Shown here in pieces: positions 7,001 to 52,184 of a stretch of DNA of 64,000 nt (the first letter of the stretch is position 1; each line of letters starts with the position of its first letter). Source of the DNA: Tubulanus polymorphus (taxonomy: Eukaryota > Animalia > Nemertea); the NCBI RefSeq assembly GCF_964204645.1, contig NC_134027.1, positions 15,222,485 to 15,286,484 of the forward strand, in the 5' to 3' direction. The notes below the pieces were generated by a model that saw nothing but the letters and a program-made list of their open reading frames with translations, searched no databases and was not told the DNA's origin. A program made the position numbers and the translations under genes.

Positions 7001-8757
7001 ATAGTTCATTAGATAATTTATCAAAATCATTAGTTGATGATGAATTGAAAATATTAAAACAACACTACCCAAATAATGATGATTTCCAATTAATGAGATA
7101 TAAAGGAGCAATTCCATATTCTTTCTATAAAAATCATAATGATTTTAACATAACTGAATTATTAAAAGAACAATTTTATGATGAATTAAAAAATGAATAT
7201 GTTAAAGATGAAGTATATAATAGAACATTGAATATTTGGAATCATTTCAAAATAGAAAATCATGGGCAATTAGTAGATTTATATTTAAAATCAGATGTAT
7301 TATTATTAACCGATATATTCGAAAGGTTTAGAGATGTAAACCTAAAATATTTCAATATTGATCCTTGTCATTGTTATTCTAGTCCAGGTTGAACATGGGA
7401 TTGTGGATTAAAATTTACAGATATAAAAATGGATTTGTTAACAAATATAGATCAATTACTATTATTTGAAAAATCTATAAGAGGAGGAGTTTCAGGTGTA
7501 TTAGGTGATAGATATTTCAATGTAAATGATAACCCTGGATATAAGTTATAATATATAGATGCAAATAATTTGTATGGTTGGGCAATGATGGAACCACAAC
7601 CTTATGGAGTATTTGAATTAACTGAAGTTTTACAGAATGAAAATAATGATAAATTTGATTGGAAGAAAAGAATCCTAGATATTGCAGATGATTCAGATAC
7701 TGGTTACTTCTTTGTTGTAGATTTAGAATATCCTGAAAATTTAAATCTTGAAATCTAGCTTACTGTCCAGAGCATAAAACTGTAACTCATGAAGAATTAT
7801 CAAATTATCAAAAAAGAATTAAACCCGAAAATCATATTCATACAGAAAAGTTAATGGTAACTCAAGAAGATAAATATAATTATGTAGTACATTATAGAAT
7901 GTTAAAGTTTTATCTAAAACAAGGAATGATCCTAAAAAAAGTACATAGTCAATTTCATTTAGTCAATCTAAGGGGTTAGAAAAATATATAGATTTTAACA
8001 CCAAACAGAGAACTGAAGCTAAAACTGATTTCGAAAAAGATTTCTTCAAGTTAATGAATAATGCATTCTATGGTAAGACTTGTGAAAATATTAGAAATAG
8101 AAATGATATTGAGTTAGTTAGTAATGGTAAAAGAATTAGACATTTACAAACATACCCTAAGTTCATTGGTAACAGAATATTTGATGAAAATTTAGCTGCA
8201 GTTAAAATGAGAAGAACATCAATGAAATTTAAAAAACTAATCTATGTTGGCGCTTCAGTTTTAGAATTATCAAAATTACTAATGTATGAATTCTATTATA
8301 ATGTATTACAACCACTTTTTGGAGAAAAACATATAGAAATATTATATTTTGATACAGATTCTTACATATTAAAGATAAAAACTGATAACATAACTGATGA
8401 TTTAAAAACATTAAAACATCATTTTGATTTCAGTAATTAACCTAAAGATCATGAATTGTTTAGCAATGATAATAAAAAAGTGTAGTAGAAAAGAATATTC
8501 ATTTCAAAGATTACATCAATTGTATATTCAATGAAGAAGTTAGAAAACATAAAATGAGATGTTTAAGATCTGAAGATCATGAAATGTTTATTGAAGAAAT
8601 TGAAAAGATAAGTCTAAACCCATTTGATGATAAAAGATATATTCTGGATGATGGAATTCATACAGTTGCTTATGGTTGTAATTTAGATGAATACTTAAAA
8701 TTTAAAAGAGGAGAAACAAAAGAGAATGAGTTTATGAAAAGAATTCTAACGTGTTAA
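4059..8757 (+). pseudogene. pPolB: Protein-primed family B DNA polymerase (pPolB-1), disrupted, intein-free
   Basis: ExoI VIYGDFES, ExoII FHNLSGYDAH, ExoIII YLKSDVLLL, motif A YIDANNLYGWAM, motif B KLMNNAFYGK, motif C YFDTDS. Multiple stops and frameshifts, an internal deletion near 8480 and a solo LTR in the 5' end. Confidence 0.95.
4075..4866. mobile_element. Solo LTR (792 bp) inserted in the start of pPolB-1
   Basis: TGT...ACA termini and 5-bp TSD TAAGT (4070-4074, 4867-4871). Removing it restores MEANKYYCPTC. Confidence 0.85.
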
Positions 8758-16738: not shown

Positions 16739-19700
16739 TTAACATTTTTGTATCCTGTTCATTATTTCCTTCTCTTTTGTTTCTTCTCTTTTGAATTTTA
16801 GATATTCTTCTAAATTGCAACCATAAGCAACTGTGTGTATACCATCATCTAAAATATATCTTTTATCATCAAATGGGTTTAGACTTATCTTCTCTATCTC
16901 TTCAATAAACATTTCATGATCTTCAGATCTTAAACATCTCATCTTATGTTTTCTAACTTCTTCATTGAATATACAATTGATGTAATCTTTGAAATGAATA
17001 TTTTTTTCTACTACACTTTTAGTAATTCCTTTCAATTTCTTTGATTCATGAGCTTTAGTTTTATATGAATACATTTTAGATCTAACACCAATGAATTCAA
17101 TCATTTCTTCACCACCTAATTCATCTTTTAATTTACCAGGCACCTTTTTATTATCATTGTTAAACAATTTATGATCTTTAGGATAATTACTAAAATCAAA
17201 ATGATGTTTTAATGTTCTTAAATCATCAGTTATGTTATTAGTTTTTATCTTTAATATGTAACTGTCGGTATCAAAATATAAGATTTCTATATGCTTTTCT
17301 CCAAAATGAGGTTGTAATATGTTATAATAGAATTCATACATTAATAACTTTGATATTTCTAAAACTGTAGCTCCAACATAGATTGGTTTATTAAATTTCA
17401 TAGATGTTCTCCTCATTTTAACTGCAGCAAAATTTTCATTAAATATTCTGTTACCTATGAACTTAGGATATGTTTGTAAATGTCTAATTCTTTTACCATT
17501 ACTAACTAACTCAATATCATTTCTATTTCTAATATTTTCACAAGTCTAACCATAGAATGCATTATTCATTATTTTGAAGAAATCTTTCTCAAAATCAGTT
17601 TTAGCTTTAGTTCTCTGTTTGGTGTTAACATCTATATATTTTTCTAACCATTTAGATTGACTTAACGAAATATATCTATGTACTTTTTTAGGATCATTCC
17701 TTGATTCAAATAGAATTTTAACATTCTATAATGCACTACATAATTATATTTATCTTCCTGAGTTACCATTAACTTTTCTGTATGAATATGATTTTCGGGT
17801 TTAATTCTTTTTTGATAATTTGATGATTCTTCATGCATTACAGTTTTATGTTCTGGACAGTATGCTAGATTTCTAGATTTAAATCTTTTATCTTCAGGAT
17901 ATTCCAAGTCTACAACAAAGAAGTAACCAGTCTCTGAATCATCTGCAATATCTAGAATTCTTTCCTTCCAATCAAATTTACCATTATTTTTATGTTGTAA
18001 AACTTCACTTATTTCAAATACTCCATAAGGTTGTGGTTCCATCATTGCCCATCTATAAAGATTATTTGCATCTATATATAATAACTTATATCCAAGATTA
18101 TCATTTACATTGAAATATCTATCACCTAATACACCTGAAACTCCTCTTATAGATTTTTCAAATAATAATAATTGATCTATATTTGTTAACAAATCCATTT
18201 TTATATCTGTAAATTTTAAACCACAATCCCAAGTTAATCCTGGTGATGAATAACAATGGCAAGGATCAATATTAAAATATTTTAGGTTTACATCTCTAAA
18301 CCTTTCAAATATATCAGTCAATAGTAATACATCTGATTTTAAATATGAATCTACCAATTGTCCATGTTTTTTTATCTTAAAATGATTCCAAATATTCAAT
18401 GTTCTATTATATACTTCATCTTTAACATATTCATTTTTTAATTCATCATAGAATTGTTCTTTTAATAATTCAGTTATATTGAAATCATTATGCGATTTAT
18501 AAAATGAATATGGTATTGCGCCTTTATATCTCATTAATTGAAAATCATCATTATTTGGATAGTGTTGCTTTAATATTTTTAATTCATCATCAACTTATGA
18601 TTTTGATAAATTATCAAATGAACTACTTAAAAATCTATATGAATCTATAAATCTTAGACACCCAAATTGGAATGATATATAATTCTCAGATGTTTTAGCT
18701 AACATTTTAAATTTATAAGTTGGTATTTTATCTTTTGATCTATTTGAATTTAATCTTTCTATTTCATTATTGATTTCTTCTATTTTATGGCATAGCTGTT
18801 TGATGAATAAATGAGCATCATATCCTGATAAATTATGAAATATTACTGGAACAAAATTGATTTTCTTAGCTTGTAAGTTACAATTCTCATGCGCTGCGCC
18901 TCTAAACTTTCCATTCAAATGATCATCGTCTCTTACTTTTTTATCTTTTAGATTAAACGTCTTTTCGCAATAATAACATTTATCAGCAAACTCAAATTCT
19001 TCTTTATCTTCTTCTGTCATTATAATTTCTTTATTTGTATCTAATACTTTACTAAATTTGATTTCATACTCAATTAATAGGTCACAAAAATGATTGATAA
19101 CATTTTCATTTCTATAATTATAATATTCACTTTTAATTAGTTCTGGATAATCAGATTATATATATAACCCGATAGCTGCAGCTGATTGATGAATCTTTTT
19201 AATAGTATTTGTTATTAGAGGATCTGAAAAATCAATTATATCATTTTCATTAGAATTTAATTTCTTTCTTTTATGATATATTTCTTTTCTATCTTGATCA
19301 GTTAATTCTTTATTTAATGATTCAAAATCTCCATATATATAACAATTGGTACTTTATTCTTGTAATTATATTTTTGAATTCAAATACTTTATCCTTTTCA
19401 TTTGGTAAAACTATTTTACAATAATCATGATTTTCACATAATTGTTTATGATTTAATAATGCACTTTCAGTTCTGAATTTAGTTATACATTTTCTACATA
19501 TATATATTTTATTATCAAAATCATTTTCTGATTTGAAAAATAAATCAATACGTTTAATATTTATCCACATATAATGATTCTCATAATATAGTATATCTAT
19601 AACATCATTTGAATTATAATCTTTTGATAAGTATAGAGGTTCTAATGTATAATGTTTAATATTATTACCTTTTGTTTTTGGCAATTTGACTAAATCAAAC

Positions 19701-29971: not shown

Positions 29972-30095
29972 GATTAAACTGTATGAGTAATTGGAAAATT
30001 TCAAGTATCATAACTCAAAAATAATAATTCAACTCTAAATATTCATATTCAAAATAAGATATTTCAAATTACTTTTAATTTTTTTCTTTAAATAA

Positions 30096-30332: not shown

Positions 30333-30364
30333 TTTAATTTATTCTATATTTTTTGACTATAAAA

Positions 30365-32055: not shown

Positions 32056-32224
32056 TAAGCTGTACATAAAATTCTACAAGGTCAGAGAATACATGTTGTT
32101 ATATGCCTATTAACCAAAATGTTGCTCAATTTAGAATTGACGGCTGTCTGCCCAGTACCCCCTCCCCATTTTAGGAATTTTTCAATCAACGAGAAATTGT
32201 ATTAAATCGTCTTCCAGCATCTCA

Positions 32225-33332
32225 TTTTTAGCACACTTGGGACTTTAGTCCCAGCGGGCTATTGCGTTCACTTTTCGTCCGTCGTCCGTTCGTTCGTCCG
32301 TCCGCCCGTAGACGGAATCCAGTTATTTTGGAAAGTTTTGAAGACGCTTCAATGGATTGTCTTCGATCTTTAATTTATACATGTATCTACCCTAGATACA
32401 CCTTCTGCCCGAAAACTGGTCCGATTAGAATAAAGAGTGCTGACTGGCGGCCATTATTGTTCGCCAAAATCAGCACTTACACATTTTTGAAGTTTTCAAG
32501 GGAAATTTTAAAGATGCTTTGATCAATTATCTTGATCTTTCGTATGTATTTGTATCCCCCAAGGGCCTATCAGCATAAGACAAATTGGGTCGATCACACT
32601 CAAGATGGCCGTCCTGTGACCTTTTTTGTGCCCAAAAATGTCAATTTTCCTGTAGCTTCCTACTGGTAGCTGAGTCCTGTAGCTTCCTACTGGTTTGCCA
32701 TTTTTCATTGAAATTTGCGATGGCTATTCTCTGAAAAGGAATCTTTAATATCTAGACAGGTATTTCTGATCAGCCAATTATCATGCAATTGGCGGTTATC
32801 TTGGTGTCATCAGTACTCATTCCTAGGTGGAAAATACCTAAGCATATTTTGTTACCACAATCAATTGGAAAGTTGTAGCTCATAACATGTTCTATGATTG
32901 TGGTGAGTTTCAAGGTCATTGGTTTTTGTATATGGCCACCAGGGGTGCTGAATTATACAATAACTTAGTATTTCTATATTATATTCATACCTATGCATAT
33001 TTTGTTACCACCATCTATTGCAAAGTTGTAGCTCATGACATGTTCTATGATTGTGGTGAGTTTCAAGGTCATTAGTTTTTCTATATGGTCACCAGGGGCG
33101 TTGAATAGTAGAATAACTTAGTATTTCCTTATTATATTGGTACCTAGGCATATTTTGTTACCATAATCAATTGCAAAATTGTAGGTCATGACATGTTCTA
33201 TGATTGTGGGGAGTTTCAAGGTCATTGGTTTTTGTATATGGTCACCAGCAGGCGTTGAATATTGAAATTGTTAGATTGTTGAGCATTTGAAACCACTTCC
33301 CAAGAGGGCATGGTGTCCCTGGACCCCTATTT
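32225..33332 (+). mobile_element. Helentron-associated interspersed element (HINE/DINE-like)
   Basis: TTTTTAGC start, GGGACT..AGTCCC stem, (CGTC)n microsatellite, ~125-bp internal tandem units, 3' GGTGTCCCTGGACCCCTA. Other copies at 58120, 60592 and 62630. Confidence 0.7.
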
Positions 33333-36300
33333 GTTTCTCTTCGGATATTAAAATTCATTGTGATCAATTTGCGGAAAATGTTTTAATGCGTTTTTTCCGG
33401 AAAGCATAAAATTTCCACTAACTTTTCGCACAAGACTTTGAATGGAAGCTATATGCATGTTTAAAATGTTTCATATCTATTTTCAGGATAAATTAGCTAC
33501 TCGGAGCTGCGAAATCCCAACAGCACTCAAGCCACTAAATGGGTATAATCGCCCGGAGCTCCACAAACATAAACGTACGCAACTATCTGAAACGGAGATG
33601 TCATCATTTAGAGATATGTTATTTACTGTTTTACAACAGGTAAGCCCCCTTGAATTTTCATACTTTAAAATTATGTTTTACCGAGTTAGAGAAAATTAAT
33701 TATACTTTAGCGAATATATTCACAAACAAGATTGTAAATGTAAAATATATTCTACACAAGAACACGTCATGGGCATTATTTCAAGGATGTCTGTATTGCA
33801 TTTTTATTTTCTTTAACTGACTATGAACTATATCAATAGTTTAAATTCAATGGTGGACAGCAGACTTTGTATTTCTATGTATTACTTTGACGGACTGATC
33901 TGTGGGCAAGTCATGTATTCCACAAACAAAATTTTGACAAGGGATTATCAAATGCAAATACTTTTATATTCTAGAAATGGATTTCTACAGATGACCAATG
34001 GAAGCACATGAAGGAGATGGTAAAGAACCTAGCTATGGCATTAGACAAGTATATCGATTATCTGAATAAGAAAACAGCAGAAATGAATCGGATACACAGT
34101 TTACAGGAACCAGTACGGAGTGTTGATGACGCTTATAGTACTATAGACTTGCCATATGGTATGCCATTTCCCAAAATCCATGCTGAATATATGACATACA
34201 TTTATGAAGCTTTAACTGTATTGGGTGACAATGAACCTCTATTTCTGAACCAATACCTACCTGAAAATCCTCAACAAAGGTACAAAGTTATAAATAGCAT
34301 AAAAATTATGGTGTTGGATTTAGGTCTGTCTTGTACACTTACAGTACTGGAAACAACCTTGGTTCCTTGCATTTTGTATGGAAATGGTCAGAAAATGAAG
34401 ATACAATAGATTCAAATAGCCATGTTATCCTTAAACTGTCGGCCGACATGCCAAAATTCCATACACGTGAAATGCGCTAAGTTGTTGAAAAAATGGTCGG
34501 TTCTGTAGTAAAATTAAAACCTCTGGTATTCAGAAATATCAATAAACTTATTTCGGGTGATATGTCTGTTGGAGAAACTGCAGAGCAGGCCATAATTGAT
34601 TCACGTGTCAGGCTTATTATGGAATCTGGGGACGTAGATCTGGTGGCAGATATGAGAACCTTAAATCAAGGCCGGGAAGCCAAGTTTGAGCCGTTTTGGG
34701 TTGAGGTGGAGAAGTATTTAAATGAAATTTGTGGCGAGGTTATAGATGATCGTCGTCATGATGCTGTGTGCCATATTGCCATGTCCATCCACCACCTACA
34801 CAAAGAAGTTTCCAGCCGTTGTCCAGAATGGCTTAGACTTCAATTTTGGCCGAAGGACCCATATTCAAAATCTGCCTACCAATACACGGGTAGGTTAAAA
34901 TTGAAGTATATGGTGCAGAAAAGGCAGGCGAGGCACTCACACATTGATTCTCACTATGTATCAGCATTGTACAAGTACGAACGTGAGATGGCCATTAGGT
35001 TTAGAGATAAATGTGTCTTTATTTCAATAGATGATAAACATAAAATCAAATTAGGTGAACCGGGATATCCTGTGGCAGCGTGTGATCATGGTAAGCAGGT
35101 AATTGTAGACAATGATAAGCTATTTTCAGTTTGCGATCGTGATTTCACAGTTTGGGTTGACTCCAAGTGTGACATTGCTCATTGATGTGCCAGACTCAAT
35201 CACTGGGAGTTTCTATTCTGGGCAAGTCTTTGTAAATCTCAAAGATAGTATATTAGAACCGTCTAGCCCAATTCGACATGCCACTGAAATTATCAAGATA
35301 TTGGATACTCAGGTTAGAAAGCCAATTCTGTTTATTTATTCCTGTGGGCAGACTGGTCAATACAGTTTCTGCCATAAAAAATGTGGTGCATTCGATTGCC
35401 AGCTCTGCTCCCTTTCAACTATACCGGCAGACGACTTCAAGGAAATACATTTCCTCCCATTGCCTGTGGTGGATGATTCTGGGGAACATTACAAACCATT
35501 TACTGAGGTTTATGGTACAAAAACCACCGACAAGCCCCCATCTAGCACCCGGAAAACAGGTGGGCATGAAATTCCCTTCAATCCTACAGCACAAACTGCT
35601 AAAAATGTTGGTGAAATTGCTATTTGTAGCGAGTGTGACAAATCCCGTGTTTTATATTCGGCTAAAATGCTATCGCCTAAAGAACGGGAAAATCTTATGG
35701 TCTTGATGGAGTCTGTGCTCTATGTGTGTGGTACCACTATAAAAGAAATAGTGTTTGAATCTGAAAATGAAGATGGGAAGTTGTTAGGCGATGAGGTATA
35801 CATACGCAAAAATCTAAACTGCTTATCGCCTATTGAAGTCCCGTATTACTCCAGTCAACTGTTTGTCAATATCTGCACCAATTGTGGGGGTCAGGAGGAT
35901 TTTCCACTGCAGCTGGTTCGGTTGACTTGTACCCCATCTGTGAACCCTGCTTTGACACAAAATTAGGTCGTGTTCTCAAGCGTAAAAGGAAAGTATTTGA
36001 CAAGTAAATTTTGGCACACTTCATATGTACGTATTGCCTTGAATTAGATTCTAATTTGCAGCCTGTAGAACATTGGGCTTCAAGTAAATTTGCATTTTTA
36101 CATATTGTATTTTTATACATTTTTGTTGGTTGAAAAGTTTATACTCCATATTGGGCTTTGGCTCTAGATGGTCTCAAATCATATGAACATTATTATGTTA
36201 AAATTCTGTAATTCATTTTTATCAAGTTTGTAATTTCATTTTATAAACCAAGCCAATGTCTAGTATAAATTCCGACAAGGTCCCTTAAGTGTAAGGCCAA

Positions 36301-37410: not shown

Positions 37411-37434
37411 GTATTATTTGAAATATCATATATC

Positions 37435-37740
37435 TTAATTTGAATTATACAGTTTATTGTTAAGCTCATGAATAAAAAAGTGATTCCTTAATGATTTTTT
37501 ATTTTTATATCTTTTATTGCATATTTCACTGCATTTGATATTATTTATTCGATCTGATGGATAATTTACGTTATCTTTTAATTCTGTATATTTAATTTTA
37601 CAGCTATCATAGAATTCTAACAACTGTTTTATAGTATAAACTGAGAATGAAAATAAACCTGAAATCATAATAATTGATTGAATATTCTGTTGATTTTTAT
37701 ATATTAGATGTAATATTTCTAATACCTTATTTTCACTCAT
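37435..37740 (-). CDS. Mirror copy of the TM plus Zn-finger protein
   Basis: Inverted homolog of 30365-30664. Confidence 0.55.
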   Translation of the reverse strand: MSENKVLEILHLIYKNQQNIQSIIMISGLFSFSVYTIKQLLEFYDSCKIKYTELKDNVNYPSDRINNIKCSEICNKRYKNKKSLRNHFFIHELNNKLYNSN

Positions 37741-37787
37741 TTTTATAGTTAAAATATATAGAATGAATTAAATTAAAAGATGCTGTT

Positions 37788-38009
37788 TTAATCCTCTAAT
37801 TCTTTTAAATCATTAACTTTTTTATTGTTATTCTTTCTGTGATTGTTCCCATTTAGCTTCTTTAATTTCTTGCTCAATTTATTATTTTCATTCATTAGAT
37901 CCTTACTGATATTTTCATAGTAAAAATATAATGCTGCCAATATTAAACCTCCTGCTACAAGATAATGCTTCAAATCACTTTTCCCAGTTGGAATGCTGAA
38001 ATCATCCAT
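37788..38009 (-). CDS. Mirror copy of the small TM protein
   Basis: Inverted homolog of 30096-30332. Confidence 0.55.
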   Translation of the reverse strand: MDDFSIPTGKSDLKHYLVAGGLILAALYFYYENISKDLMNENNKLSKKLKKLNGNNHRKNNNKKVNDLKELED

Positions 38010-38134
38010 TTATTTAAAGAAAAAAAATTAAAAGTAATTTGTAATATCTTATTTTGAATATGAATATTTAGAGTTGAATTTTTATTTTTGAGTTATGATA
38101 CTTGAAATTTTCCAATTACTCATACAGCTTAATC

Positions 38135-38800
38135 TTATTTCAATATAGAATTATTATTCTTTTCATAATTGATATGTTTAACTGTTTGATAATGCTTTGA
38201 TTAATGTGATTTTAAATATTTGCCACCACAATAACAATACACTTTCTCATTAGGATTGAATTTTCTAAATTCATCATCTAAATTACATTGAACTGCAACA
38301 TCTTTGAATGATTTTTCATTATCTAATTCGCATTGAATACCAATATTTGATGAATTTTCAATTTTAGATGATTTGTTTATTATCAAAATTGAAATAATAT
38401 AATTGTCTTTTTTCAATTCTTAAGTTAATCAAATCATTGTAATCTTTAGAAAGTATTATATCACTTTTTCTTTCATTGAAAGGAATTTGAAGAATATTAA
38501 TTATGTTTTCATCTAAAGTTCCTTTTTTAAAACTGTATTGAACATTTTAGGATTTTTAACGCCATTATCAAAAGTATCAATTAGTTCAATAATTAAATAT
38601 GTTTCATTTGATGATATTTGATTAATAACAGTAATATTTTCAATTTTATAATGTCTTGGGGACACTAAATCTGTTGCTGAAATATAATTTTTAATGTTAA
38701 ACTGTGAAAATAATTTATTGGTTTCTTTTATTTCGATTTTGAATTTGAGTTCTTCTTCTTCTGTCTTCATTTTAATAACAAAACTTCCATTAAAACTCAT
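38135..38800 (-). pseudogene. Disrupted mirror copy of the 222-aa Zn-finger protein
   Basis: Inverted homolog of 29303-29971 with frameshifts and a stop. Confidence 0.7.
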
Positions 38801-39480
38801 TCAAATATAAATATTGAAATATGTTTAAAATATAAACTATTTCACTCACACTTTACTCACACTTTTATATTATTTTAGTTATCCATTTATTTTACTTATA
38901 TTTTTATTCGAAATCTGTTAAAATATGAATTATTACTCACACTTTAGTAATTAACATATAAATGATTTTAAAATATATGAAATTCGTGTAAATAATGTTC
39001 ATTTATATGAATATTTTAAGAGTAATAGGGATAATAGGGGTTCAAGTCAAAGGGGAGAGTGTGCTCGACCCTTCGACCCTTGGCTTGAACCCCTATTATC
39101 CCTACTACTTCCATAGTACATTATGGTTTTACAAAGTTTAAACCATAAAAAATTCTTGCAGAAAATCTAATTTCATTTGATCTGTTTCCTCATAATTTTC
39201 GAATCTTATGAGCCCAAATTTCAGGTATGAATCAAACCTTAGAGTTACAGTTTTATTTTCTTTCCATCCTTCCCTTAACTCTGTGGCATAAGTTTTCAAT
39301 TTTCTAAGTTTTAACTAAACATTGATTTAATTTCTTCATTAATTTAATGCTTTGGGCCCAAATCTACAGTACGATTTCAATATGAAACAAAATTGGAGTT
39401 ATTTTCTATCCTGTTTCATTGACAACATTAAATGTGTTCCCGGTCACCGACAATATTTTGAGTGTTTTCGTTACACCCGT

Positions 39481-39943: not shown

Positions 39944-39976
39944 GCAGTCAATTTCAGTGTCCCCCAGTTGACAGTG

Positions 39977-40321
39977 AGTAATTAGGAAATGGCGTTTTCA
40001 TACCAGAGGTCGAGAGGTCGAGACACCACTCATCACAGCTAGGCTCTAGTGAGAACGGACGATTGCTCTGTGATACACATATACAGTGAGTGCGCGTAAC
40101 AACAACTGCGCGTGGATAGATAGATACAGTGAGTCGCTACTGAGAACGGTTATTAACGCGTGTGCTATTACTGTAGTACAGTGATTGCGTGTCAACTGTG
40201 CCCGGATAAATAGATGCTGTGAGGCTTGGGTGAGAACGGTTAATAGCGTGCTTGTTATATACAAGGGGAAGTACTCCCCACTCATTACCACAAGTAATTT
40301 GTTTTCCTTATAAATGGGAGA
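39977..40321 (+). repeat. Left TIR of element C
   Basis: Near-identical inverted copy of 50353-50697. Confidence 0.95.
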
Positions 40322-40429
40322 TTGAGTACAGAGGAATTAAAAGATTTAGAAGGATTTAAAATAATCTATCATGGAAAAAATGAAGTTGGTCATCATGATT
40401 TAGAAATTGTTGATTAAATTTTAAAAAAA

Positions 40430-40919
40430 TAAATTAATAAAAATAATGAATATCTAGAATCCTAAATGACTTATCTGGACAATTTAATTGCTCCGCATAG
40501 ATAGACAAAAGTAGTGAGATATTCAATTAATTTAGAAAAATTATTTTTTTGCTTTTTTTCTAAAATATTAATCCATTTTTTTATTATCAATTTTGGAATT
40601 TCAGAAGTATTTTCATTTTTGATAGCAGTTGTTTAAGATTTATAAATATCATGAATTTTATTTGATTTCTTATACCAATTACACCCAATCAAAGTGAATA
40701 CAATTACAAATCCAACTGTAAAATATAGACATTTATCAAATATTCTATTATTAGAAGGAGTAGAAATAACAATATTTTACCATTTTTATTAACATTTTTA
40801 TTACTTATTTTTTCTTTTACAGCTTTTTTATATTCTTGTGATTTAATTCCTAATTGCCGAGACCATTCAATTTGTTTCGGACTTCTCGGTTTTTTCTTCA
40901 CTTCTTCCACCTCGCTCAT
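40430..40919 (-). pseudogene. Small basic/TM Polinton protein (likely disrupted)
   Basis: TAAATG start, MSEVEEVKKKPRSPKQIEWSRQLG; 3' extent uncertain. Confidence 0.4.
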
Positions 40920-41457
40920 TTAATATAGAAATATTTTTACTTTCAATATTTGAAAATGTTATAACTCCAGTTGATAATAATGTCATAAATCCACCTAATT
41001 GAAATGATAAATATCCAATCCATTTATTTAATTCGGTCATAACTAAATAATCATTTTTTAAATCAGCATATAATCTATTTTCATCTTGAATTGGCAGCAT
41101 ATAATTACATAATTTACTATAACCTTTTACTACATTTTCTGATATCGCGTCATTAATTCTAGCTGTTCTCGCGGTTTCATAAATCTTAAATAATCTAATA
41201 ATTTCATCTGATTTCATTGTATCTAATTCATTATAAGTTAAATTTTTACCGATAAAATTTTTACATTTTCCAGATGCTATTAATATTTCTAATTGATGTT
41301 TACAATAAAGATAATATTCATAATTATTATGTGTTGTAACATAATTTAAAGCACCATCATCTGGAGTTAATTTTGTTTCTGTTATTCCTAAATCATCTAA
41401 AGTTTTTTCAATTGGAACATCACCATTTTTAGATTTTATTTTCTTTTCACCCGCCAT
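40867..41457 (-). CDS. Hypothetical Polinton protein (196 aa)
   Basis: Intact ORF with TAAATG start and a hydrophobic C-terminal segment. Confidence 0.7.
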   Translation of the reverse strand: MAGEKKIKSKNGDVPIEKTLDDLGITETKLTPDDGALNYVTTHNNYEYYLYCKHQLEILIASGKCKNFIGKNLTYNELDTMKSDEIIRLFKIYETARTARINDAISENVVKGYSKLCNYMLPIQDENRLYADLKNDYLVMTELNKWIGYLSFQLGGFMTLLSTGVITFSNIESKNISILNERGGRSEEKTEKSETN

Positions 41458-41487
41458 TTATATAACAAAAAAATTAGTTCTGTTGTT

Positions 41488-41762
41488 GCAACTAGAATTC
41501 AACTAGAATGTAACTAGAATTCAACTAGATTAACAAGCTAGTTGAAATATTGTTGTTTTTATTTATTTCTTATTGAATTTTATTTGATTTTTGTTTCAAC
41601 TACCAATAACTAGAATTCAACTAGAATGTAACTAAAAATATACTAGATTAACAAGCTAGTAAAATATTGTTGAATTTTATTTGATTTTTGTTTCAAATAC
41701 CAATAACTAGAATTCAACTAGAATGTAACTAAAAATATACTAGAGTAACAAGCTAGTTGAAT
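41488..41762. repeat. Intergenic tandem array of AACTAGAAT(T/G)-like 10-mers in three higher-order blocks
   Basis: AACTAGAATTCAACTAGAATGTAACTA occurs at ~41490, ~41608 and ~41706. Confidence 0.9.
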
Positions 41763-42371
41763 TTAAATAAATTCATATTTAAATGGGTGTTGTAATCTAA
41801 ATAGTAATTTTGATCTTTTAATATTTTTCAATTTATCCATATATTCATTATGTAAATCATGCGGAATAATATCATTTTCCTCAAGCGCATTTTTCATAGA
41901 TTTTCTATCTTTATTGTAGAATAAAACTAAAAATCTAATGTTTTCTCTAAAATCTTTAATAATTGAATTATATTTTTGATTCAAAACCCATGTTGTTATC
42001 CCGAAATGTCTACCAGAAAAAGCTAAATAACATAACTCACTCTCTCTAATTTTTGAATCATGTAAATTTGCACAATCATCTATGATAAATAATGTATTTG
42101 ATCCTTTATAAATATCTATTGCTATTTTTATACAATTATCTAAATTTTCTTTTACTGTTTTAGGATCTAATATAATAAATTTATTATTTCTAGTAATATT
42201 TCTGTCATAAGTTTGATTAAATTCATATGTTGGACAAAATAATACTATATTATCAAAATAGTTTTTATAAACAGTTTCTAATAAATTTCATATGAAATAA
42301 GTTTTTCCACAATTTGTTACGCCAGAAATTAACATATTATGAGGCTCAAATATAAATAATTCCTTATTCAT
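41763..42371 (-). pseudogene. FtsK/HerA (A32-like) packaging ATPase with one premature stop
   Basis: Hand translation gives MNKELFIFEPHNMLISGVTNCGKTYFI*: Walker A GVTNCGKT, Walker B LFIIDD, SGRH Arg finger and LNQ sensor. TGA at 42288-42290. Only the C-terminus is in the ORF track. Confidence 0.9.
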
Positions 42372-43502
42372 TTATATATTTTTAATTTTACTTGATAATA
42401 TCCATTCATTGAATTTATCTGGCCATCCAACCCATTTTACTAAAGAATATTTTTTTCTTTTAACAGTTTTTGTTTTTAATCCTTTTTCAATTTTATATTC
42501 TTGTTCTAGATTTTCAGTAGTTAAACTTAATTCTTCTTCGTAAAAGTAGCCATCAACTTCTTCACCATCTAAATCTTCTAATTTATAGACACATGGTTTT
42601 TTTGTTGTTATTACCTTTTTTATATTATATATTTCCCTAGTAAAATTTCGATCGTATCCCTTGTCAAATATCTTTTTATACTTAGAAATTCTAACATTTT
42701 GACCAATTTTAAATTTAGGTTCACCAAAATCATCTACAAGAAATGCTCCATATAAATTATTCCAAACAATTTCAGCATTTTCAGGTTTTCTAGCATCAAT
42801 AGGTTTCATTCCAATAGAAGAATGATAAGAATTATTATATCCTTCTATCATTTTTGGTAAAACATCAATCCATTTAAAAGTATTATTTGCTGTAAAATAT
42901 TTCCACATTCTTGTTCTTAATGTTCTATTAAATCGTTCAACAACTGCTGCTTTTTTATCCGATTTTGTTGAAAAATATTTAATATTATGATTATCTAAGA
43001 GTTCATGAACTAGTGAATTATCAAATTCTTTTCCATCATCAAATTGTATTTTTTCTGGTTTCATTATATCATCCGAAAGAAATTTTCTTAAAACATTTGA
43101 TGTTTGTACAGCATATTTTCTATAAAGTGGGAAGCTCCATACATAACGACTAAAAATATCAATTATATTCAATATCCACCAATAATCATCATTATCTTTC
43201 TTAACATTTTTCATATCAATTAAATCTCCTTGCCACTGTTGATCTACATAACTTACCATAGTTTTACGAGTTTTATATTTTCTAACAATTTTTTTATGTG
43301 TTGTATATGTTGGTTGTTCTAACATAAATTCATTTATATCTTTATATTTAACTAAATTTTGTTGGATTATCTTATCTAATTTATCTTGTTTTACTTGACG
43401 CCATATATTTTTGTTAGAAAAATAAGCAACCGAACTCTCAGGGTTGTAATATAAATTTCTTAAATATTGTTCTTTAGTATTAGGGGTTTTTTTACCGCCC
43501 AT
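42372..43502 (-). CDS. Retroviral-like (rve) integrase with C-terminal chromodomain, intact
   Basis: WQGDLIDM, IQFDDGKEF and VVERFNRT (DDE), then YKIEK...LVKWVGWPDKFNEWI. Confidence 0.95.
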   Translation of the reverse strand: MGGKKTPNTKEQYLRNLYYNPESSVAYFSNKNIWRQVKQDKLDKIIQQNLVKYKDINEFMLEQPTYTTHKKIVRKYKTRKTMVSYVDQQWQGDLIDMKNVKKDNDDYWWILNIIDIFSRYVWSFPLYRKYAVQTSNVLRKFLSDDIMKPEKIQFDDGKEFDNSLVHELLDNHNIKYFSTKSDKKAAVVERFNRTLRTRMWKYFTANNTFKWIDVLPKMIEGYNNSYHSSIGMKPIDARKPENAEIVWNNLYGAFLVDDFGEPKFKIGQNVRISKYKKIFDKGYDRNFTREIYNIKKVITTKKPCVYKLEDLDGEEVDGYFYEEELSLTTENLEQEYKIEKGLKTKTVKRKKYSLVKWVGWPDKFNEWILSSKIKNI

Positions 43503-43556
43503 TTATATATCCTTAATTTTAACTTTATATTTCTAATATTGAATACTATCTAATTG

Positions 43557-44775
43557 TCAATTTACAATATTTAATTGTGCGTCAGATATAATATAAATGT
43601 GCATTTTAAAATTTAAGCTTCCTTTTTTCTTTTTCATGAATAATTGTATTCCATCTTTAGTGTTCTGTAATTTTTTTCCAGAACCATGTAATGAATTATC
43701 CTCTGTTGTTCTAAAATCTAACCATAATTCATATTTATTGCCGGTATAATAATCAATTTGATTAATATTACAATTTTCAGATGATTTTACTTTTTCATTC
43801 ATAAAATGTTTTCTAATTTCTGGCCATTGAAATATCATTCTCATTCCTTGACAAAATATTTTATTTGCTATTCCTTCGATAGTTATTTCTACTTTTGTTA
43901 TTTCAGGATTATAATAATTATCTACCTTTATTGCGCCATTAGAATATGTTGCAATGGTAAAAAATATTAATATACCTTTAATAGATCTTCTTGGGAAGTT
44001 AATATTCTCATTAATTATTTCATCATTTGCATTAATAGTTACAGTTTTAAATTTATCAATATAAACATATAATAATGAAAATCCTTGATTGTATTGAGTT
44101 TGAATTGTATTAGCAATATTTTCATTAGTTACTGTATTATATTCTAAACATATATTCGATAATTTATAACCCATATCTTTAACAACGTTAGATAATACAA
44201 TTTCATTTAAAGGAGCAAATGTTATCTCAAATATAATATCTTCTTGAATTGCATATTTATATAAAGGTGCATTATTATTTATCAATTCAAAGTCAAATGG
44301 AATTTTATATTTGCTTCCATAAATCTTTTTAATCAAATTATCTACGTCATTAGGTACTACTGCATTATTGGCTTCAGATCTTAATTTATTTTGGTTTTCC
44401 GATTGAATGCCTTGAAATATCATATTATTTCTATTTTCTTTAGTTAACCATAAATCTTTATAATGCATAAATAAATTATAATTATCTAATGAGAAAAAGG
44501 TTTCTGGTCCAATCTTTAAAGTTAATTTTTTAATCAAATACCTTCCAACATTATCAACAACATAATTATTATTATTACCAGTTACTTTTATATCGGCTGA
44601 TAAATAAATACTATTTGGAACATAAAAAGTATTTTGTGTTAATCTAGGGATTCTAACATATAAAGTTTCATCGGGATTAATATTTGAAGGATTATGAGTA
44701 ATTATATGATCTTTCTGCTTTAATAGCATTAGATATTCTAGAAATCTTAGAAGGACTTATATAACTCCCACTCAT
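43557..44775 (-). pseudogene. Major capsid protein copy 2 (N-terminal frameshift, slightly short C-terminus)
   Basis: Highly similar to 14549-15796. True ATG at 44775; small deletions near 44715-44745. Confidence 0.85.
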
Positions 44776-44839
44776 TTATTTAACAAAAAAATTAATTATT
44801 TATTTTTTATTATTTTTTCTTGATATCTTTTTGATATCA

Positions 44840-45218
44840 TGTTTACTAACCCAAAAATAATTGCACTTACAACTGTAATTAAAAATTAAATAATATGTTC
44901 AGCAGCAAAGTTAATAATGTTTCCTGCAGATTTCAATATAAAACCAACAATTGATGCAATAATTCCTGGCAATGCTGCAGCAGATTTTTTAGATAGTTCC
45001 CATAAATATTTTGCTAATTTCTTTAAACCATCTTTAACTTTATCTTGTATAGAATTATTATCATTCGGGGGTTTATCCGGTTTATTGGGAGTGGGAGTAG
45101 ATTTCAAATAATTTGATATTGCTAAACCAATTGTTGTAAATAACATAGTTACAGCTGTTAGAATTGAAAGAATTGTTATTCCTTCTAATTTAAATAATAA
45201 CTTTATTCTATCTTTTAA
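44840..45218 (-). pseudogene. 3' remnant of the coiled-coil/TM gene
   Basis: Homolog of 14186-14528; 5' part replaced by the hairpin. Confidence 0.8.
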
Positions 45219-45219
45219 G

Positions 45220-45629
45220 AGTAATAGGGGTAATGGGCTTTCAGGTTAAAGGTTGAATGGTCGAGTTCATTAAAAACAAATATTAAAAGTAATTTAAAAC
45301 TATAATATATTTTCATAACCGTGTGTATTTCAGTTGAATAATAGAATAACTATTATTATTTGAATATATTTGATTATATGAATTTGTGTATTGTAAATAA
45401 ATCAATTGGTCGCGGAGCGTAGCGGTAGCGAAGTGGAGCGACCAATTGATTTAATACAATATGCATCTAAAATTTAAATTATTGATATCTTAGAATAAAT
45501 ATTTAGTTATAATATAAAATGCACACGGTTATGAAAATATATTATAGTTTTAAATTACTTTTAATGTTTTGTTTTTTAATGAGCTCGACCGTTCGACCTT
45601 TGGCCTGAAAGCCCATTACCCCTATTACT
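45220..45629. repeat. 410-bp hairpin built from Polinton terminal motifs at a deletion junction
   Basis: AGTAATAGGGGTAATGGGCTTTCAGG...CCTGAAAGCCCATTACCCCTATTACT, ~190-bp imperfect arms, GC-rich loop. Confidence 0.9.
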
Positions 45630-48600
45630 ATTATCATTGCTAAATAGTTCATGATCTTTGGGATAATTGCTAAAATCAAAATGATGTTTTAAGGTTTTTA
45701 AGTCTTTTGTTATGTCATTTGTCTGGATTTTTAGTATGTAACTGTCAGTATTGAAGCAAATTAATGGAAATCCACAGTTGAATGTGCCATCTTCGGTTGA
45801 TAAATCATAAACATTATCTGTTGGGTTATATATGTCAAATAAATCTTTAACTTCTTCAGTTAAATCTTCTTCTGTGTGGCTTAAATTAAAGCAATTTGGT
45901 TTAGATTTAATCAATCCAATATTCATATTGAAGCCTAATGAATTACATAATATATTTAACCCTGATATTGCAACTTTTCCTTTCTGTGCAAAGGTTAACT
46001 TTTTATCCTTTGTAAATTTTTTAGCACCATCTGCTGCGTAGAATCCAATGAAGAACCATTTTCTTAAATCATTTTTTGCATTTACTACATAATCTGGAAC
46101 TATCTTTTCTTTAGTTGAAGTATTACTTTTCACTATTGCATGAATATAGAATTCATCATTATATTTTATAGCAAAATCTTTAGGGTTATTAACAAGTATT
46201 CTATAAACTGCTGATGATTTCATAACATCCATGATTTTAAATGTTTTATTTGGATAAACTTCTTCACAATATTTCTTTATTCTTTCTAATAATATCAAAT
46301 CTTGATTGCACAAATACCAACAATATTTATTACCCCAAACATATTTATACACACCTGCTGAACCATCTCCCATAAAAAAATCCTTTGATAAAATATTCTT
46401 TTTCTTCCAATGTTTCGGGTTCTATATTATAAATATTATCAATAATTTCATCGGATGACATAGGATTCATTCTTGGGTAAAATCTTTTATGTAATAATTC
46501 ATCTCCAATTTTTATATCAGTTGGTTTTATTTCATCACCATTTTGTTTAATTAAACTATGATCTTCAGTAACATCAACAAATCCTAATTTAGTTCTAACT
46601 CTATAGAATTTCTTATTTGTTTTATGCCTAATAATATTCTTTAATTTTTTCCATCCATTTCTTGTCCAAACATCCATTAATCCATTTATTTGTATTAATT
46701 CTTTTTCACCATACGAAATATAACATTCATTTTGTTTTGGAATTATTTCTGAAATTCTTCTTATCAATATTTTATCATTACATTTTAATAATATTGGGGT
46801 GTCAGCTGTTACAGAATCAAAATATAATATTTCAATATGCTTTTCCCCAAAAAGTGGTTGTAAAACATTATAATAAAAATCATACATTAATAATTTTGAT
46901 ACTTCTAAAACCGTTGAACCAATGAATATAGGTTTATTAAATTTCATTGACGTTCTTTTTAATTTAACTGCTGTTAAATAATCTTCAAATCTTTTATTTC
47001 CTAAATGTCTAGGACTTGATTGTAAATGTCTTAATCGTTCAGAATTATTTACTAATTCAATATCATTTCTATTTCTAATATTTTCACATGTTTTACCATA
47101 AAAACTATTATTCATTAATTTGAAGAAATCTTTTTCAAAATCTGTTTTCGATATGGTTCTCTGTTGAGTATTAAAATCTATATATTTTTCTAACCACTTC
47201 GATTGATTAAATTTAATATATCTATGTACTTTCTTTAATTTCATTCCTTGTTTTAGATAAAATTTTAACATTCTATAATGAACAATATAATTGTATTTAT
47301 TATTTTGAGTAAGTATTAATTTTTCTGTAAAAACATGATCTTTCGGTTTTATTTTCTTCTGGTATTCACTTAAATAACTATCATCTACGGTTAAATGTTC
47401 TGGGCAATAAGGTAAGTTTCTTGTTTTAAACTTTATATTTTCAGGATATTCTAAATCAACTACAAAGAAATAACCGATTGGTGCTTCATCTTTTAAACTC
47501 GCAATTGCGCTTTCCCAATCAGTTTTATCATCATTTTCAACTTCTGTTAATATAAAATTTTTATTTGGTTGAGGTTGCATCATTGCCCAACCATATAGAT
47601 TATTGGCGTCAATATATAATAATTTATATTCATCATTTGCTTTAAAATACCTATCTCCCATAACACCACTAATTCCACCTCTAATTGATTTTTCAAATAA
47701 TAAAACCATGTCTGGTTCTTTTAATAAATCTAATTCTACATTTGTATATTTTAAACCACATTGCCAGGTTAAACCAGGACTTGAATAACAATAACAAGGA
47801 TCAACATTAAAATGATTTAAATTTACTTCTCTAAATTTTTCAAATATGTCAGCCAATATCATAACATCTGATTTTAAATATAAATCAACTAATTCACCAT
47901 GATTTTTCATCTTAAAATGGTTCCAAATATTTAATGTTCTATTAAACACTTCATCTTTCACATACTCCTCTTTTAATTGATCATAAAATTGATCTTTTAA
48001 TAATTCTGTTACATTAAAATCATTGTGTGTTTTATAAAATGAATAAGGAATTGCACCTTTATATCTCAATAATTTAAAATCTTGTTCATTTGGATAATAA
48101 TATCGAGTTATAACAAAATCATTATCAACTAAACTTTTTGATAAATTATCTAATGAACTTGCTAGAAATCTATAAGAATCTAAAAATCTAACGCAACCAA
48201 ATTGAAATGAAATATAATTTTCAGATGTTTTAGCTAATAGTTTAAAATCATATTTTCTTACATTTACACCATTCGTAGCATTATATTCTTCTATTTCTTG
48301 ATTAATTGTGCCCAATTTCCTTGATAATTGTTTTATAAATAGATGGGTATCATAGCCTGATAAATTATGAAATAATATTGGTACGAAATTAACTTTCTTA
48401 GCTTGTAAATTACAATCTTCAGAGGCAGCTCCACGATATTTTGAATTTAAATGATCATGATCTCTAACTTTTTTATCAAATGAATAAAAACGTTTTTCAC
48501 AATAACAACAATGAGTTGCATAATTAAAATCAATTTCATCTTCTTATGTCATAACTATTCTTTTATTTTTGTTTAATAATTTTGCAAAATCACTTTCTAA

Positions 48601-50360
48601 TTCAATCATTTTGTCACAAAAATCATTAACTACATCTTCACCTCTAAAAGAAATATATTGACTTTCATATAATTCGGGATAATTTGATTTGATGTAAATT
48701 CCATAAGCAGCAGCTCTTTGATGAACTTTTTAAATTGTATTTATAATTGGCGGGTCTTGTGTTGTGTCTTCATTTAATTCATTTCCTTTATCCATTGATT
48801 TTAATAATTGCTTTTTTTATATATTTCTTTTCTATCTTGATCAGTTAATTCTTTATTCAACGATTCAAAATCCCCATAAATTACAAATGGAACAATATTC
48901 TTAAATTTATGATTAGTAAATTTCAATTTATAATCTTTTTCTGTTGGCATTATTAATTTACAAAAATCTTTATTATCACATAATTCTTTATGTTTTAGTA
49001 ACGCATTCTCAGTTCTAGATTTAGATAAACATTTTCTACATAGATAAATTTTATGACTGTTAAAATCACTTTCTGTTCTAAAGAATGAATCAATTTGTTT
49101 TAACCACATATAATGTCCATTTTCATCTTTTTTGTAATATAACAAATCTATAGCATTTTCATCATCATAATATTCTGTTAAATATAAAGCTTCCAAAGTA
49201 TAATCTTTAATATTTTCACCTTTTGTATTTGGTAATTGCATTAATTCGAATACATTTATTTTTAACTTATTAATTTTTTCTATTTTGGGTATCATTTTTA
49301 TAGTTACTGGATATTGATCAATTTTATATAATTTTTCATATTTCCGGTAATTTGTTATTCTAAAACTATGCGTAATATCTTCTGTTGGGTGTAAGCAACT
49401 AATAATTGACCATAGAAAACATTTATTATCTTCATTTGAACATTTATTACTGCTTTTGTTGTAAATGGTAATTTAATATAAGACGATGCTTTAATATCCT
49501 TTTCTGTTGTAAAGTTTGAATCATTTTTAAACATTGTTTTACTTTTTGATGTTTTATTCCTTTTTGTATTATAAACATTTAAATCTAAAAATATAATTTC
49601 ATTTAATGATAAACCAGAACCCTCAAAATATCTTTCTTCAATATGACGTTCAAATTCATTAAATATTTTTTCTAACTTCTCTTTTATTTGCGTTTTTTGA
49701 AATTATTTCTTCAGAGAGTGTTTGAATATTATAATCCATTTTCTCTTCTGACTTTAAAAAACTTACTTTCCCAGAGATACTATTTTTTGGATATTCAACA
49801 TCTGTTATCAAATCTAGTATTTTTTCTATTATTTCATTAAATTTACTATAATCTTCTATTGTTGTACCTTTAAAAAATCTAAATATAATAGCTGCAGGAC
49901 CAATTTTACTACGTAATGTTTCTAATATTTCAATTGTATCTTTTATTTCTAGTGAATCAATATAATTTCTAACATTTTCCATGTAAGGTTTATTTGAAAT
50001 GGATTTAGTTTTTGAAGTTGGATTTTTTACTTTTTGAGGTTTATCATCGAAATAATCTTTTCCTAAAACATTATTACTCAAATTTTGATGGTGTTTTTGT
50101 GATTCGAGATGTCTATTATAATTCCTCTTTACTATAAATTCATTACAAACTTCACATTTTATTTCATCCACATTCATATTTTCTAATCGTTCTTTTCTTT
50201 CATTGGAATTTTCTGAAGTTTCAAAATCTATAACATTTTTTATATGATTTGAAGATTTTTCATGACGCGATTTTTGAGATTTATCAATGTATTTTTTACA
50301 ATATGGACAATAATATTGATTTTCATTAACATCAATTTGTTCTGTCTTATTCTCTCCCAT
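45630..50360 (-). pseudogene. pPolB: Protein-primed PolB (pPolB-3), intein-containing, 3'-truncated and disrupted
   Basis: VIYGDFES, YLKSDVMIL, YIDANNLYGWAM and KLMNNSFYGK; motif C is split into YFD / TDS; the gene ends at FSNDN at the hairpin. Confidence 0.95.
45750..46815 (-). mobile_element. Intein with LAGLIDADG homing endonuclease (~355 aa, one +1 frameshift)
   Basis: Block A SVTADTPI, block B VDVTEDHSL, LAGLIDADG-1 FIKGFFMGDGS, LAGLIDADG-2 FFIGFYAADGA, block F VYDLSTEDGTF, C-terminal Asn followed by Thr+1. Excision restores YFDTDSYILKI as in pPolB-1 and -2. Confidence 0.95.
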
Positions 50361-50697
50361 TTATAAGGAAAAAAAATTACTTGTGGTGATGAGTGGGGAT
50401 TACTTCCCCTTGTATATAACAAGCGCGCTATTAACCGTTCTCACCCAAGCCTCAAAGCATCTATTTATCCGAGCACAGTTGACACGCAATCACTGTACTA
50501 CAGTAATAGCACACGCGTTAATAACCGTTCTCAGTAGCGACTCACTGTATCGATCTATCCACGCGCAGTTGTTGTTACGCGCACTCACTGTATATGTGTA
50601 TCACAGAGCAATTGTCCGTTCTCACTAGAGCCTAGCTGTGATGAGTGGTGTCTCGACCTCTCGACCTCTGGTATGAAAACGCCATTTACTAATTACT
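50353..50697 (-). repeat. Right TIR of element C (includes the pPolB start codon)
   Basis: Inverted copy of 39977-40321. Confidence 0.95.
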
Positions 50698-52184
50698 ACA
50701 GTGTGGTGAAAATATTATACGACAGGTAACTTCACTTCAATGACAATGTCTTTTAAAACTTATGAACAGTAAATGAATACTTATTTACAAATATTCTGTT
50801 GATTGTCTATTTGTAGGTCATTGTGTGTGTTCTGATGAAGATTTTCTGAGATACAACTCAATATTAAATTGAATGAGCTCAACGTGCACATAATGAATTG
50901 TCGTTGTATCATGGTAAGTTTTAAAAATGGATGAGACATGAATTGAAGTCAATCCAGGTTTAATTGTTGGTGATTTGTGTATTGATTCAATTTCAGAAAG
51001 TAACGTCAATCACGAATCAAAGAGATTAACAAATCCAGCACTAATCGTCATGAAATTAGATTCCAAATAACGATGAAACTTCTTGATTCTGAGATGATGA
51101 GGTTTAAAGAGCTGGAATTTATGAATAACTACACGAGCGAGCATGGATTTAGGCCTTCTGTCTGGTTAAGACTTGGTCTTTGTGATTCGAGTTAAGTTAG
51201 AGATATCAGTGTCATTCTGTTGTCACACAATTTGCAATGTCACAAAATACGTATCGTCTTGTCAGGCTGTCTTAATGTTGAATAAGATTTTGTACTAGAA
51301 GTGGACAATAAATATAGAATGGCAGTAAAAAAGAGTTTTTCTTGGTGGATTTTATACTCAATTTCTAGCAAAAATCATTGGTCCATGAGGAGAGGAAAAT
51401 ATTGCGAATATCCAGATGATCTGAATCATTGGTCTTACCCAAGTCTGTCCCAACTCACTGTCTGTGTCCAGAATATAAGTAGAGATGCTGCAGTGGATCC
51501 AAATATCCGATCTCGCAAAACACTGACAAAGGAGTTCAACTATTGTCAACTTTATTCAGACTTAAGTGATTTTCACATCATAAACACAACAATTCACTGA
51601 ATATATTTCACCTACGGTTTATAAAGAAAGCATGTCCCCCTTCGACCAAGTTCCTTCAGAATAACAATCGCGGCTGAGCCCTTTTTCTTACCTACAAAAT
51701 GAATAAGTATCAATTCTCAGTTGTCTGTTTGAATTCCGAGTAAATATCAGCGGATTATTTCGATACTTACAGCAATTAATGCCTATTCTTCGGTCTTTGA
51801 ATCTCCTTTTGTTTGCGGTTTACATTTATGATTCATAGATAATCAGCTGATTTACTGTAATCAATCATTCCAGCTCGATTTTGATATTACTCCTAGTTTC
51901 GCTTATTCGATGAGACGCCATTTTAACCCGGAAGTAACTCGATACTGACATGTTTGACATGCATGGAAAATGTAAAATGGAGGATGGGATCAACCAGGTG
52001 ATCAACCGGTCTCTAACTGAGGGTAGAGACCGGCAACCAGTCTAGTTTCTTAATTTCGTAGTTTCGTACTTTAGAAGTACCCGGCTTGAGTTGATTTCTC
52101 AAATTGTGAATAAACAACATTTTAGTATTTTCAAGAGTCGTTTCAAATTTGCTTTCCTTTTCTGCCTTCAAGATTCACTCTTCA

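Follow-up and report, generated by a model that had tools for sequence, protein, structure and literature searches.

What is an intein doing in the catalytic motif of a Polinton DNA polymerase, and how did it get there? The question is raised by one of three protein-primed family B polymerase (pPolB) copies in the window, by which we mean the whole 64-kb stretch of DNA analysed here. The initial annotation had described motif C, YFDTDS, as intact in pPolB-1 and pPolB-2 and as split in pPolB-3 by an insert of 1066 nt, and both the coordinates and the junctions proved exact: pPolB-3 reads YFD/SVTADTP...LICFN/TDS (slashes marking the junctions, at 46815 and 45750), the insert beginning with Ser and ending with Asn, with Thr as the following (+1) residue. 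Its identification of D/TDS as the pol-c site agrees with what the available part of PMC549080 gives for Mimivirus, a site YGD/TDS with Ser...Asn/Thr.

The insert and the Polinton around it

The 1066 nt do not make an integral number of codons, as the frame shifts inside a 7-base homopolymer (46374-46380) within the first LAGLIDADG motif; the translation (P0001) was made with an X at this break. Once so corrected, the insert gave the profile matches that the annotation had led one to expect of a true intein with splicing blocks and two LAGLIDADG motifs: TIGR01445 (intein_Nterm) scored 30.3 bits against a cut-off of 24.5, and PI-PkoII was matched at E 8.5e-6, together with a Pfam Intein_splicing match below cut-off (E 1.9e-5) and a weak one to LAGLIDADG_3 (E 0.026). 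Each half alone gave no match in a Pfam search at E 0.01. The residues of class 1, Asn-type inteins (Ser1, TEDH, Asn, Thr) are present in the window copy and in all 23 Polinton rows listed, one of them with TKDH, and the insert lies between exteins that are contiguous in homologues, in frame except for the break in the window copy itself. With its position at D/TD of motif C and its grouping with pol-c inteins, these sequence comparisons confirm the insert as a true intein of the pol-c type, with HINT and LAGLIDADG parts, in a protein-primed PolB. A spliceosomal or group I intron is ruled out by the ends TCT...AAT and the in-frame HINT halves, and a hedgehog or bacterial intein-like (BIL) domain by the presence of an endonuclease and of empty alleles. 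The observed/expected ratio of CpG, from small counts, is 0.29 in the intein (45750-46815), 0.44-0.65 in the Polinton DNA and 0.74-1.27 in the flanks.

Polintons, or Mavericks, are defined by long terminal inverted repeats starting with AG and by a 6-bp target duplication. The Polinton context proposed for pPolB-3 was borne out by a 10,721-bp element (39977-50697) with 345-bp repeats, the duplication ACAGTG on both sides, and a pPolB, an integrase and a packaging ATPase (PF03175, PF00665, PF04665; Table 1). The open reading frame at 43557..44756 probably encodes the major capsid protein; it had no match in Pfam, PDB or IMG/VR, and its fold model reached a pLDDT of only 28.8. No cysteine protease match was obtained among the reading frames scanned, and the element is internally deleted.

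Table 1. Features of the intein-bearing Polinton and the uninterrupted sites in the window
Feature	Position	Strand	Remarks
Uninterrupted (empty) pol-c site, pPolB-1	8345..8356	+	YFDTDS
Uninterrupted (empty) pol-c site, pPolB-2	17267..17278	-	YFDTDS
Left terminal inverted repeat	39977..40321	+	345 bp, begins AGTAAT; target duplication ACAGTG just before (39971-39976)
A32-like packaging ATPase fragment	41763..42287	-	PF04665 above cut-off
Retroviral-type integrase	42372..43502	-	PF00665 above cut-off
Probable major capsid protein gene	43557..44756	-	91% identical to 415-aa ORF at 14549-15796
Imperfect palindrome	45220..45629	.	410 bp, 77% self-complementary; at the deletion removing the pPolB 3' end and following genes
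C-extein remnant	45630..45749	-	40 codons from TDS, then cut off; tblastn with P0376
Intein, about 355 codons	45750..46815	-	1066 nt; N-terminal HINT half, LAGLIDADG endonuclease, C-terminal HINT half
Second LAGLIDADG motif	46026..46046	-	GFYAADG
First LAGLIDADG motif	46360..46383	-	Split by the frame break; intact in relatives
N-terminal splicing region	46552..46812	-	Block A SVTxDTP; block B TEDH (46569-46558); TIGR01445 residues 2-88, above cut-off
pPolB-3 N-extein	46816..50321	-	Zinc finger, EndoVII-like insert, exonuclease, motifs A and B; PF03175 E 1.5e-19
Right terminal inverted repeat	50353..50697	-	97% complementary; then ACAGTG (50698-50703)

The window copy of the intein is dead: the break in the intein is joined by three frame changes upstream in the N-extein (near 49694, 49440 and 48815; tblastn with P0376) and by the 3' truncation. 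Its penultimate residue, Phe, found in 5 of 271 extracted inteins (His in 137, Lys in 99), likewise counts against its being a working intein. The 410-bp palindrome at the truncation is high-copy, with many different flanks in the reads. AT-rich hairpins with the ends AGTAATAGGG comprise this one (45220-45629), and related ends lie at 2458, 3621-3809, 21211, 29071 and 39021; read depth is 1200-2000, with about 2500 loose ends of low agreement at 45629/45630. This suggests a mini-element of high copy number that integrates into Polintons or cuts them short. The window also holds mirror-arranged Polinton halves, 4863-8482 with 17141-20761 (inverted arms 91% identical) and 29007-30669 with 37430-39078 (arms 94% identical), the latter enclosing an unrelated transposon-like segment at 31070-35966.

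Filled and empty sites among Polinton polymerases

Complete in-frame inteins occupy D/TDS in nine other pPolB clusters (P0002, P0003, P0004, P0005, P0007, P0009, P0010, P0011, P0161), so that the intact copies for which the annotation had called a search do exist. Among the longer proteins the best matches to P0001 are P0002 (62% identity), P0003 (48%) and P0004 (47%), with P0005, P0007, P0009, P0010 and P0011 at 42-46%, plus P0161/P0205; polymerases of the PF00136 type follow at no more than about 42%, and then topoisomerase II. The complete Polinton inteins measure 333-354 aa, and all possess Ser1, TxDH, both LAGLIDADG motifs, Asn and the +1 Thr; Pfam LAGLIDADG profiles are above cut-off in P0002, P0003, P0004 and P0009. 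A model of the P0002 intein (pLDDT 75.8, from a 7-row alignment) matches TliVMA, PI-PkoII and PI-SceI (Z 14.6, rmsd 10.9, 304 residues aligned), as well as PI-PfuI and viral PolB inteins, and matches I-DmoI with Z 12.4 (rmsd 4.0, 157 aligned). The HINT fold is thus indicated by TIGR01445 in the window copy and by this model against solved inteins, and the endonuclease fold by an I-DmoI-like pair of helices with acidic ends, the first motif being broken in the window copy.

The intein is uncommon, with 4 of 120 listed pPolB relatives filled (the best 120 of 6083). A profile search of 50% representatives (best 150 of 3228 matches) returned almost only PF00136-type proteins, adding one Polinton-type fragment (P0330) and no further complete Polinton member. 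When IMG/VR and JGI contigs were scanned with single proteins, no close relative emerged; alignment scans gave only giant-virus-type inteins of 30-42% identity among the best 80 of each collection. The GTDB scan gave 23 loci, two of them full-length and viral-type (35-37%) in MAG contigs and the others short or distant, and the Atlas gave only Nucleocytoviricota, phage and archaeal PolB-intein clusters, all scoring under 0.9.

Related inteins also turned up in other settings. The same superfamily interrupts topoisomerase II at D/TDG (P0006, P0059, P0083, P0086-88, P0094), and a Chloropicon primus protein annotated as DNA polymerase delta (P0071) has a full pol-c intein. In P0156, P0189, P0190, P0192 and their cluster (55 members) the intein makes up a free-standing reading frame of 362-365 aa, which has its own start 11 residues before the intein and stops a few residues after it. 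Such frames are repeated on contigs of 20-825 kb, with many copies truncated, and are possibly a derived stand-alone endonuclease gene. Polinton- or giant-virus-type polymerases under bacterial MAG names (P0010, P0381, L161 and L162; Ca. Thiodiazotropha, Sulfurimonas, Bacteroidales) are probably mis-binned.

We took advantage of the P0003 cluster (136 members) to compare filled and empty alleles directly. Among the 15 listed, 7 are filled, 6 are empty and 2 end short of the site; what the empty alleles lack corresponds exactly to the intein, and the filled and empty exteins are 94-98% identical. Only 9 of 1191 extein positions separate 6 filled from 6 empty alleles (P0127 left out), and all 9 fall in the stretch from 7 residues ahead of the site to 44 beyond it, with none in the other 1140 residues (7e-11 under a uniform model, the interval having been chosen post hoc and the copies being related). 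Co-conversion of flanks is the pattern expected of homing, and this tract points to it, though a single recombination event could have the same effect. The filled and empty alleles of the P0007 cluster are 99% identical and do not differ near the site, so that no tract is visible there. A further pointer to homing is P0004, a very different pPolB (motif A CSLYP), which we take to carry a VSR-like insert: it bears the same intein, 41-49% identical to those of the other members against only 20-28% for the extein, and this intein groups with the window copy (98/93), as a single jump into a distant pPolB type would explain.

The empty alleles of the P0003/P0005 clade have an unusual motif C, 50 of 68 being non-standard (DCDS in 28, DTDA in 12, DTDG in 10, mixed across the tree) in a tally in which 40 of the 136 rows went unscored by the parser, a separate tally showing LLFTDTDS in 30. 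In the P0003 cluster none of the 6 empty alleles is DTDS, and the 7 filled alleles of the clade all have HYMD or NYMD ahead of the site; outside the clade, 14 of 15 scored empty alleles are DTDS and one is non-standard. These variants possibly represent an escape from homing, or they may reflect a lineage-specific relaxation.

Among sequencing data, four runs of one study contained 43-51% of the window's words, no RNA run being among those listed, and Illumina reads carrying the same species label were taken from a second, independent study (1934 Mb read). In the latter, depth is 139-262 over the intein and 499-589 over the adjoining N-extein; 58 reads join the exteins across the insert site, 5 of them skipping exactly 1066 bases, and 154 further reads diverge from the reference at the N-junction, so that filled and empty sites coexist in the species. 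The sole indel listed within the intein is the frame break, where 187 of about 250 reads disagree with the window sequence, so that the majority of intein copies are without it. Among the 35 variable intein sites listed (in a table of 136 rows), leaving out the site at the break and splitting the rest at about 92% of reads, 22 are polymorphic and fall on third, second and first codon positions in the proportion 17/4/1, and 12 are nearly private to the window copy, in the proportion 3/3/6. This pattern fits selection on the intein family and decay of the window copy after insertion. For a genome of 0.3-2 Gb we infer tens to a few hundred intein copies. One serine codon type, considered as a marker of filled alleles, was dropped, since the empty pPolB-2 has the same codon type.

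Intein and extein identities go together (r 0.95, Spearman 0.69; 36 non-independent pairs from 9 sequences), with P0004 as the exception, and three groups recur in both trees: the window copy with P0002, P0003 with P0005, and P0007 with P0009-11. Since intein identity tracks polymerase identity, residence in Polintons would be old rather than the outcome of a recent capture, although repeated homing limited to close relatives could equally produce such congruence. Mapped on the extein tree, the distribution of filled sites requires a minimum of 7 changes (P0388 being wrongly labelled empty), a number that cannot separate gain from loss.

Taken together, these comparisons make it probable, in our judgement, that the insert represents a decayed member of a pol-c-type family lodged at the same catalytic site in many Polinton pPolBs, likely acquired once, long ago, from a giant-virus-type PolB, predicted to be self-splicing and likely kept by endonuclease-driven homing among Polinton copies. 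There would have been one early transfer from a Nucleocytoviricota-type PolB to a Polinton pPolB, which is possible because motif C is common to RNA-primed and protein-primed family B polymerases. An intact copy would be made as a precursor from which Ser1, the block-B Thr and His, the terminal Asn and the +1 Thr excise the intein and rebuild DTDS; as the polymerase needs DTDS restored by this class 1 splicing, the intein would be protected from loss. The freed LAGLIDADG enzyme is predicted to cut motif C in empty Polinton copies, whether these are integrated or replicating, and repair on the template of a filled copy would spread the intein and its flanking codons when many Polinton copies share a nucleus. 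The jump to the P0004 type would have come later.

One might instead see vertical inheritance of a splicing-competent intein that has lost its homing, a single old insertion being kept as imprecise loss kills the polymerase, and patchiness being due to precise loss and ordinary recombination between Polinton copies. The agreement of intein and extein distances is as expected under this scheme, the seven or more filled/empty changes serve it whether gains or losses, and the flank differences could be a recombination tract; but no mini-intein occurs among the complete Polinton members, all of full length with both LAGLIDADG motifs, the diagnostic sites lie only in the flanks, and the divergence of the P0004 extein implies a jump, so that we find this scheme unlikely.

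Host and origin

The elements could be real and their hosts a fungus, a protist or a symbiont, making this another viral intein of a microbial eukaryote. There is no host gene in the window, and for a flanking transposon-like protein the second-best cluster, with an equal score of 0.95, is from Mucoromycota; the best cluster is commonest in Cnidaria, however, the flanks are gene-poor, repeat-rich and of 37-41% GC, relatives lie on contigs of up to 1 Mb, and P0010 comes from a sequence catalogued as a symbiont MAG of the lucinid clam Ctena orbiculata, suggesting host DNA. No Rfam family and no tRNA was found within the window, reading frames of the flanks gave no informative Pfam match, and a lophotrochozoan repeat motif occurs in the window at chance level (9 against 7.35). 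Non-animal hosts are thus, in our estimation, rather improbable and an animal host highly probable, and it is in this sense that entry into an animal germ line, as originally proposed, can be upheld as an inference.

For the origin of the family, 264 inteins were extracted and thinned to 220, from which trees of 70, 89 and 55 rows were made. The Polinton inteins form one side of a branch in all three, with an SH-aLRT support of 100, of 87 under a mixture model and of 100/100 in the 55-row tree (8 of its 55 rows being Polinton). In the mixture-model tree three long-branch rows of archaeal/phage type (P0097, P0105, P0116) join as sister to the clade; these and 31 other rows were dropped for the 55-row tree and the AU test. 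Rooted with topoisomerase II inteins only, the clade is nested inside the PolB inteins (95/94 and 96/94), in a neighbourhood without internal resolution that includes the IMG/VR GVMAG loci L086, L111, L159, L093 and L095; a sister relation to a GVMAG subgroup has a support of 91 under the mixture model and is absent as a resolved branch from the 55-row tree. A placement of the Polinton inteins outside all other PolB inteins was rejected (AU test, p = 0.0186, LG+G4), the grouping tested being the one set by the initial annotation and the test having been run after the earlier trees were seen. An ultimate source among Nucleocytoviricota-type PolB inteins is thereby supported. The annotation had opposed an intein tree congruent with Polintons to one nested among Nucleocytoviricota; nesting and congruence hold together.

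Its idea of a capture from a Nucleocytoviricota PolB is supported for this ultimate origin; as a one-off event in the window element it finds no support. Direct homing from a co-infecting giant virus into the window Polinton lineage could draw on the rarity of filled pPolB relatives and on the fact that the next-closest relatives, at 30-42%, are PolB inteins of giant-virus MAGs at the same site. The closest of all are nevertheless the Polinton inteins, in a single clade with deep internal branches and with divergence tracking that of the polymerase, and the GC content of the intein (26%) is like that of the extein (24%); we consider such a recent capture very unlikely. Nor did the resemblance to the Mimivirus PolB intein hold as a close one, Megavirus courdo11 PolB reaching 24% in the fold search against 30% for a phycodnavirus.

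Homopolymers are a common site of long-read error, the frame break lies in one, and no contig piece spans the entire stretch, but an assembly chimera or a contaminating giant-virus fragment is hardly credible and is refuted for the insert by its codon-exact position at motif C, the terminal repeats and target duplication, read depth continuous over both junctions in the independent study, contig pieces crossing the N-junction and intact homologues elsewhere; the single frame break alone may be erroneous.

Known systems and significance

Polinton inteins share with the pol-c inteins of Mimivirus, other Nucleocytoviricota and archaeal PolB the D/TDS site in motif C, the Ser...Asn/Thr ends, a length of about 350 aa and the LAGLIDADG endonuclease, and are nested among them. 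They differ in that the extein is a protein-primed PolB (PF03175) rather than an RNA-primed one (PF00136), and in forming a clade of their own, multi-copy in the chromosomal DNA of an integrating element. Nuclear scaffolds of Klebsormidium, Tetrabaena and Honda, as described in the available part of PMC10710043, also have inteins in viral-type DNA polymerases, a parallel case of an intein brought into the nuclear genome of a eukaryote by the viral polymerase gene around it, but the hosts are algae and a labyrinthulomycete; in two supplements of that paper the words Polinton, Maverick, protein-primed, Metazoa, Mollusc and Cnidaria are absent, and the available main text is without 'animal', 'metazoa' and 'Maverick'.

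HNH and VSR nuclease inserts in Polinton pPolBs (Jeong et al., 10.1101/2023.08.22.554363; Krupovic et al., PMC11161782; both as available in part) also place an endonuclease domain within the pPolB, and Krupovic et al. suggested that such inserts stem from intein invasions. In the portions at hand these are permanent domains with no splicing module described, whereas the Polinton intein is a full HINT and LAGLIDADG unit in the catalytic motif with empty alleles; in the available text of Jeong et al. 'intein' and 'LAGLIDADG' occur 0 times. That an intein is possible in a virus of animals follows from Chilo iridescent virus, cited in the same part of PMC549080, though that intein is glutamine-type and belongs to a free iridovirus, and is neither pol-c nor part of an integrated multi-copy element. 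The HINT fold itself is shared by the hedgehog/Hint and BIL domains of animals (PMC5784728, in part), which are without endonuclease and empty alleles; the P0002 model matches the hedgehog C-terminal domain with Z 8.7, and true inteins score higher (Z 12-14.6).

In a literature search, with most subscription journals and InBase outside its coverage, neither a Polinton nor any protein-primed polymerase was reported to carry an intein, and the Polinton-resident pol-c family is apparently undescribed. A survey of eukaryotic inteins (PMC5784728, in the part available) states that metazoan genomes have none, which is why the family matters: should the hosts prove to be animals, their DNA would harbour true, endonuclease-bearing inteins in multiple copies. 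A bolder version, which we advance only tentatively as somewhat short of probable, is that an ancient homing-intein family is active in the germ-line genomes of animals and inhabits the Polinton populations there, one that would splice out, home between copies, have jumped between distant pPolB types, have driven the near-invariant DTDS of empty sites into the escape variants DCDS, DTDA and DTDG, and have spawned the free-standing multi-copy intein gene. The family records gene exchange between giant viruses and Polintons, and at the population level it is evidence of encounters and recombination between Polinton copies within one nucleus. It offers, at a polymerase active site, a testable arms race of parasite upon parasite, and its intact members are candidates for novel tools of splicing and cutting that are suited to eukaryotic cells.
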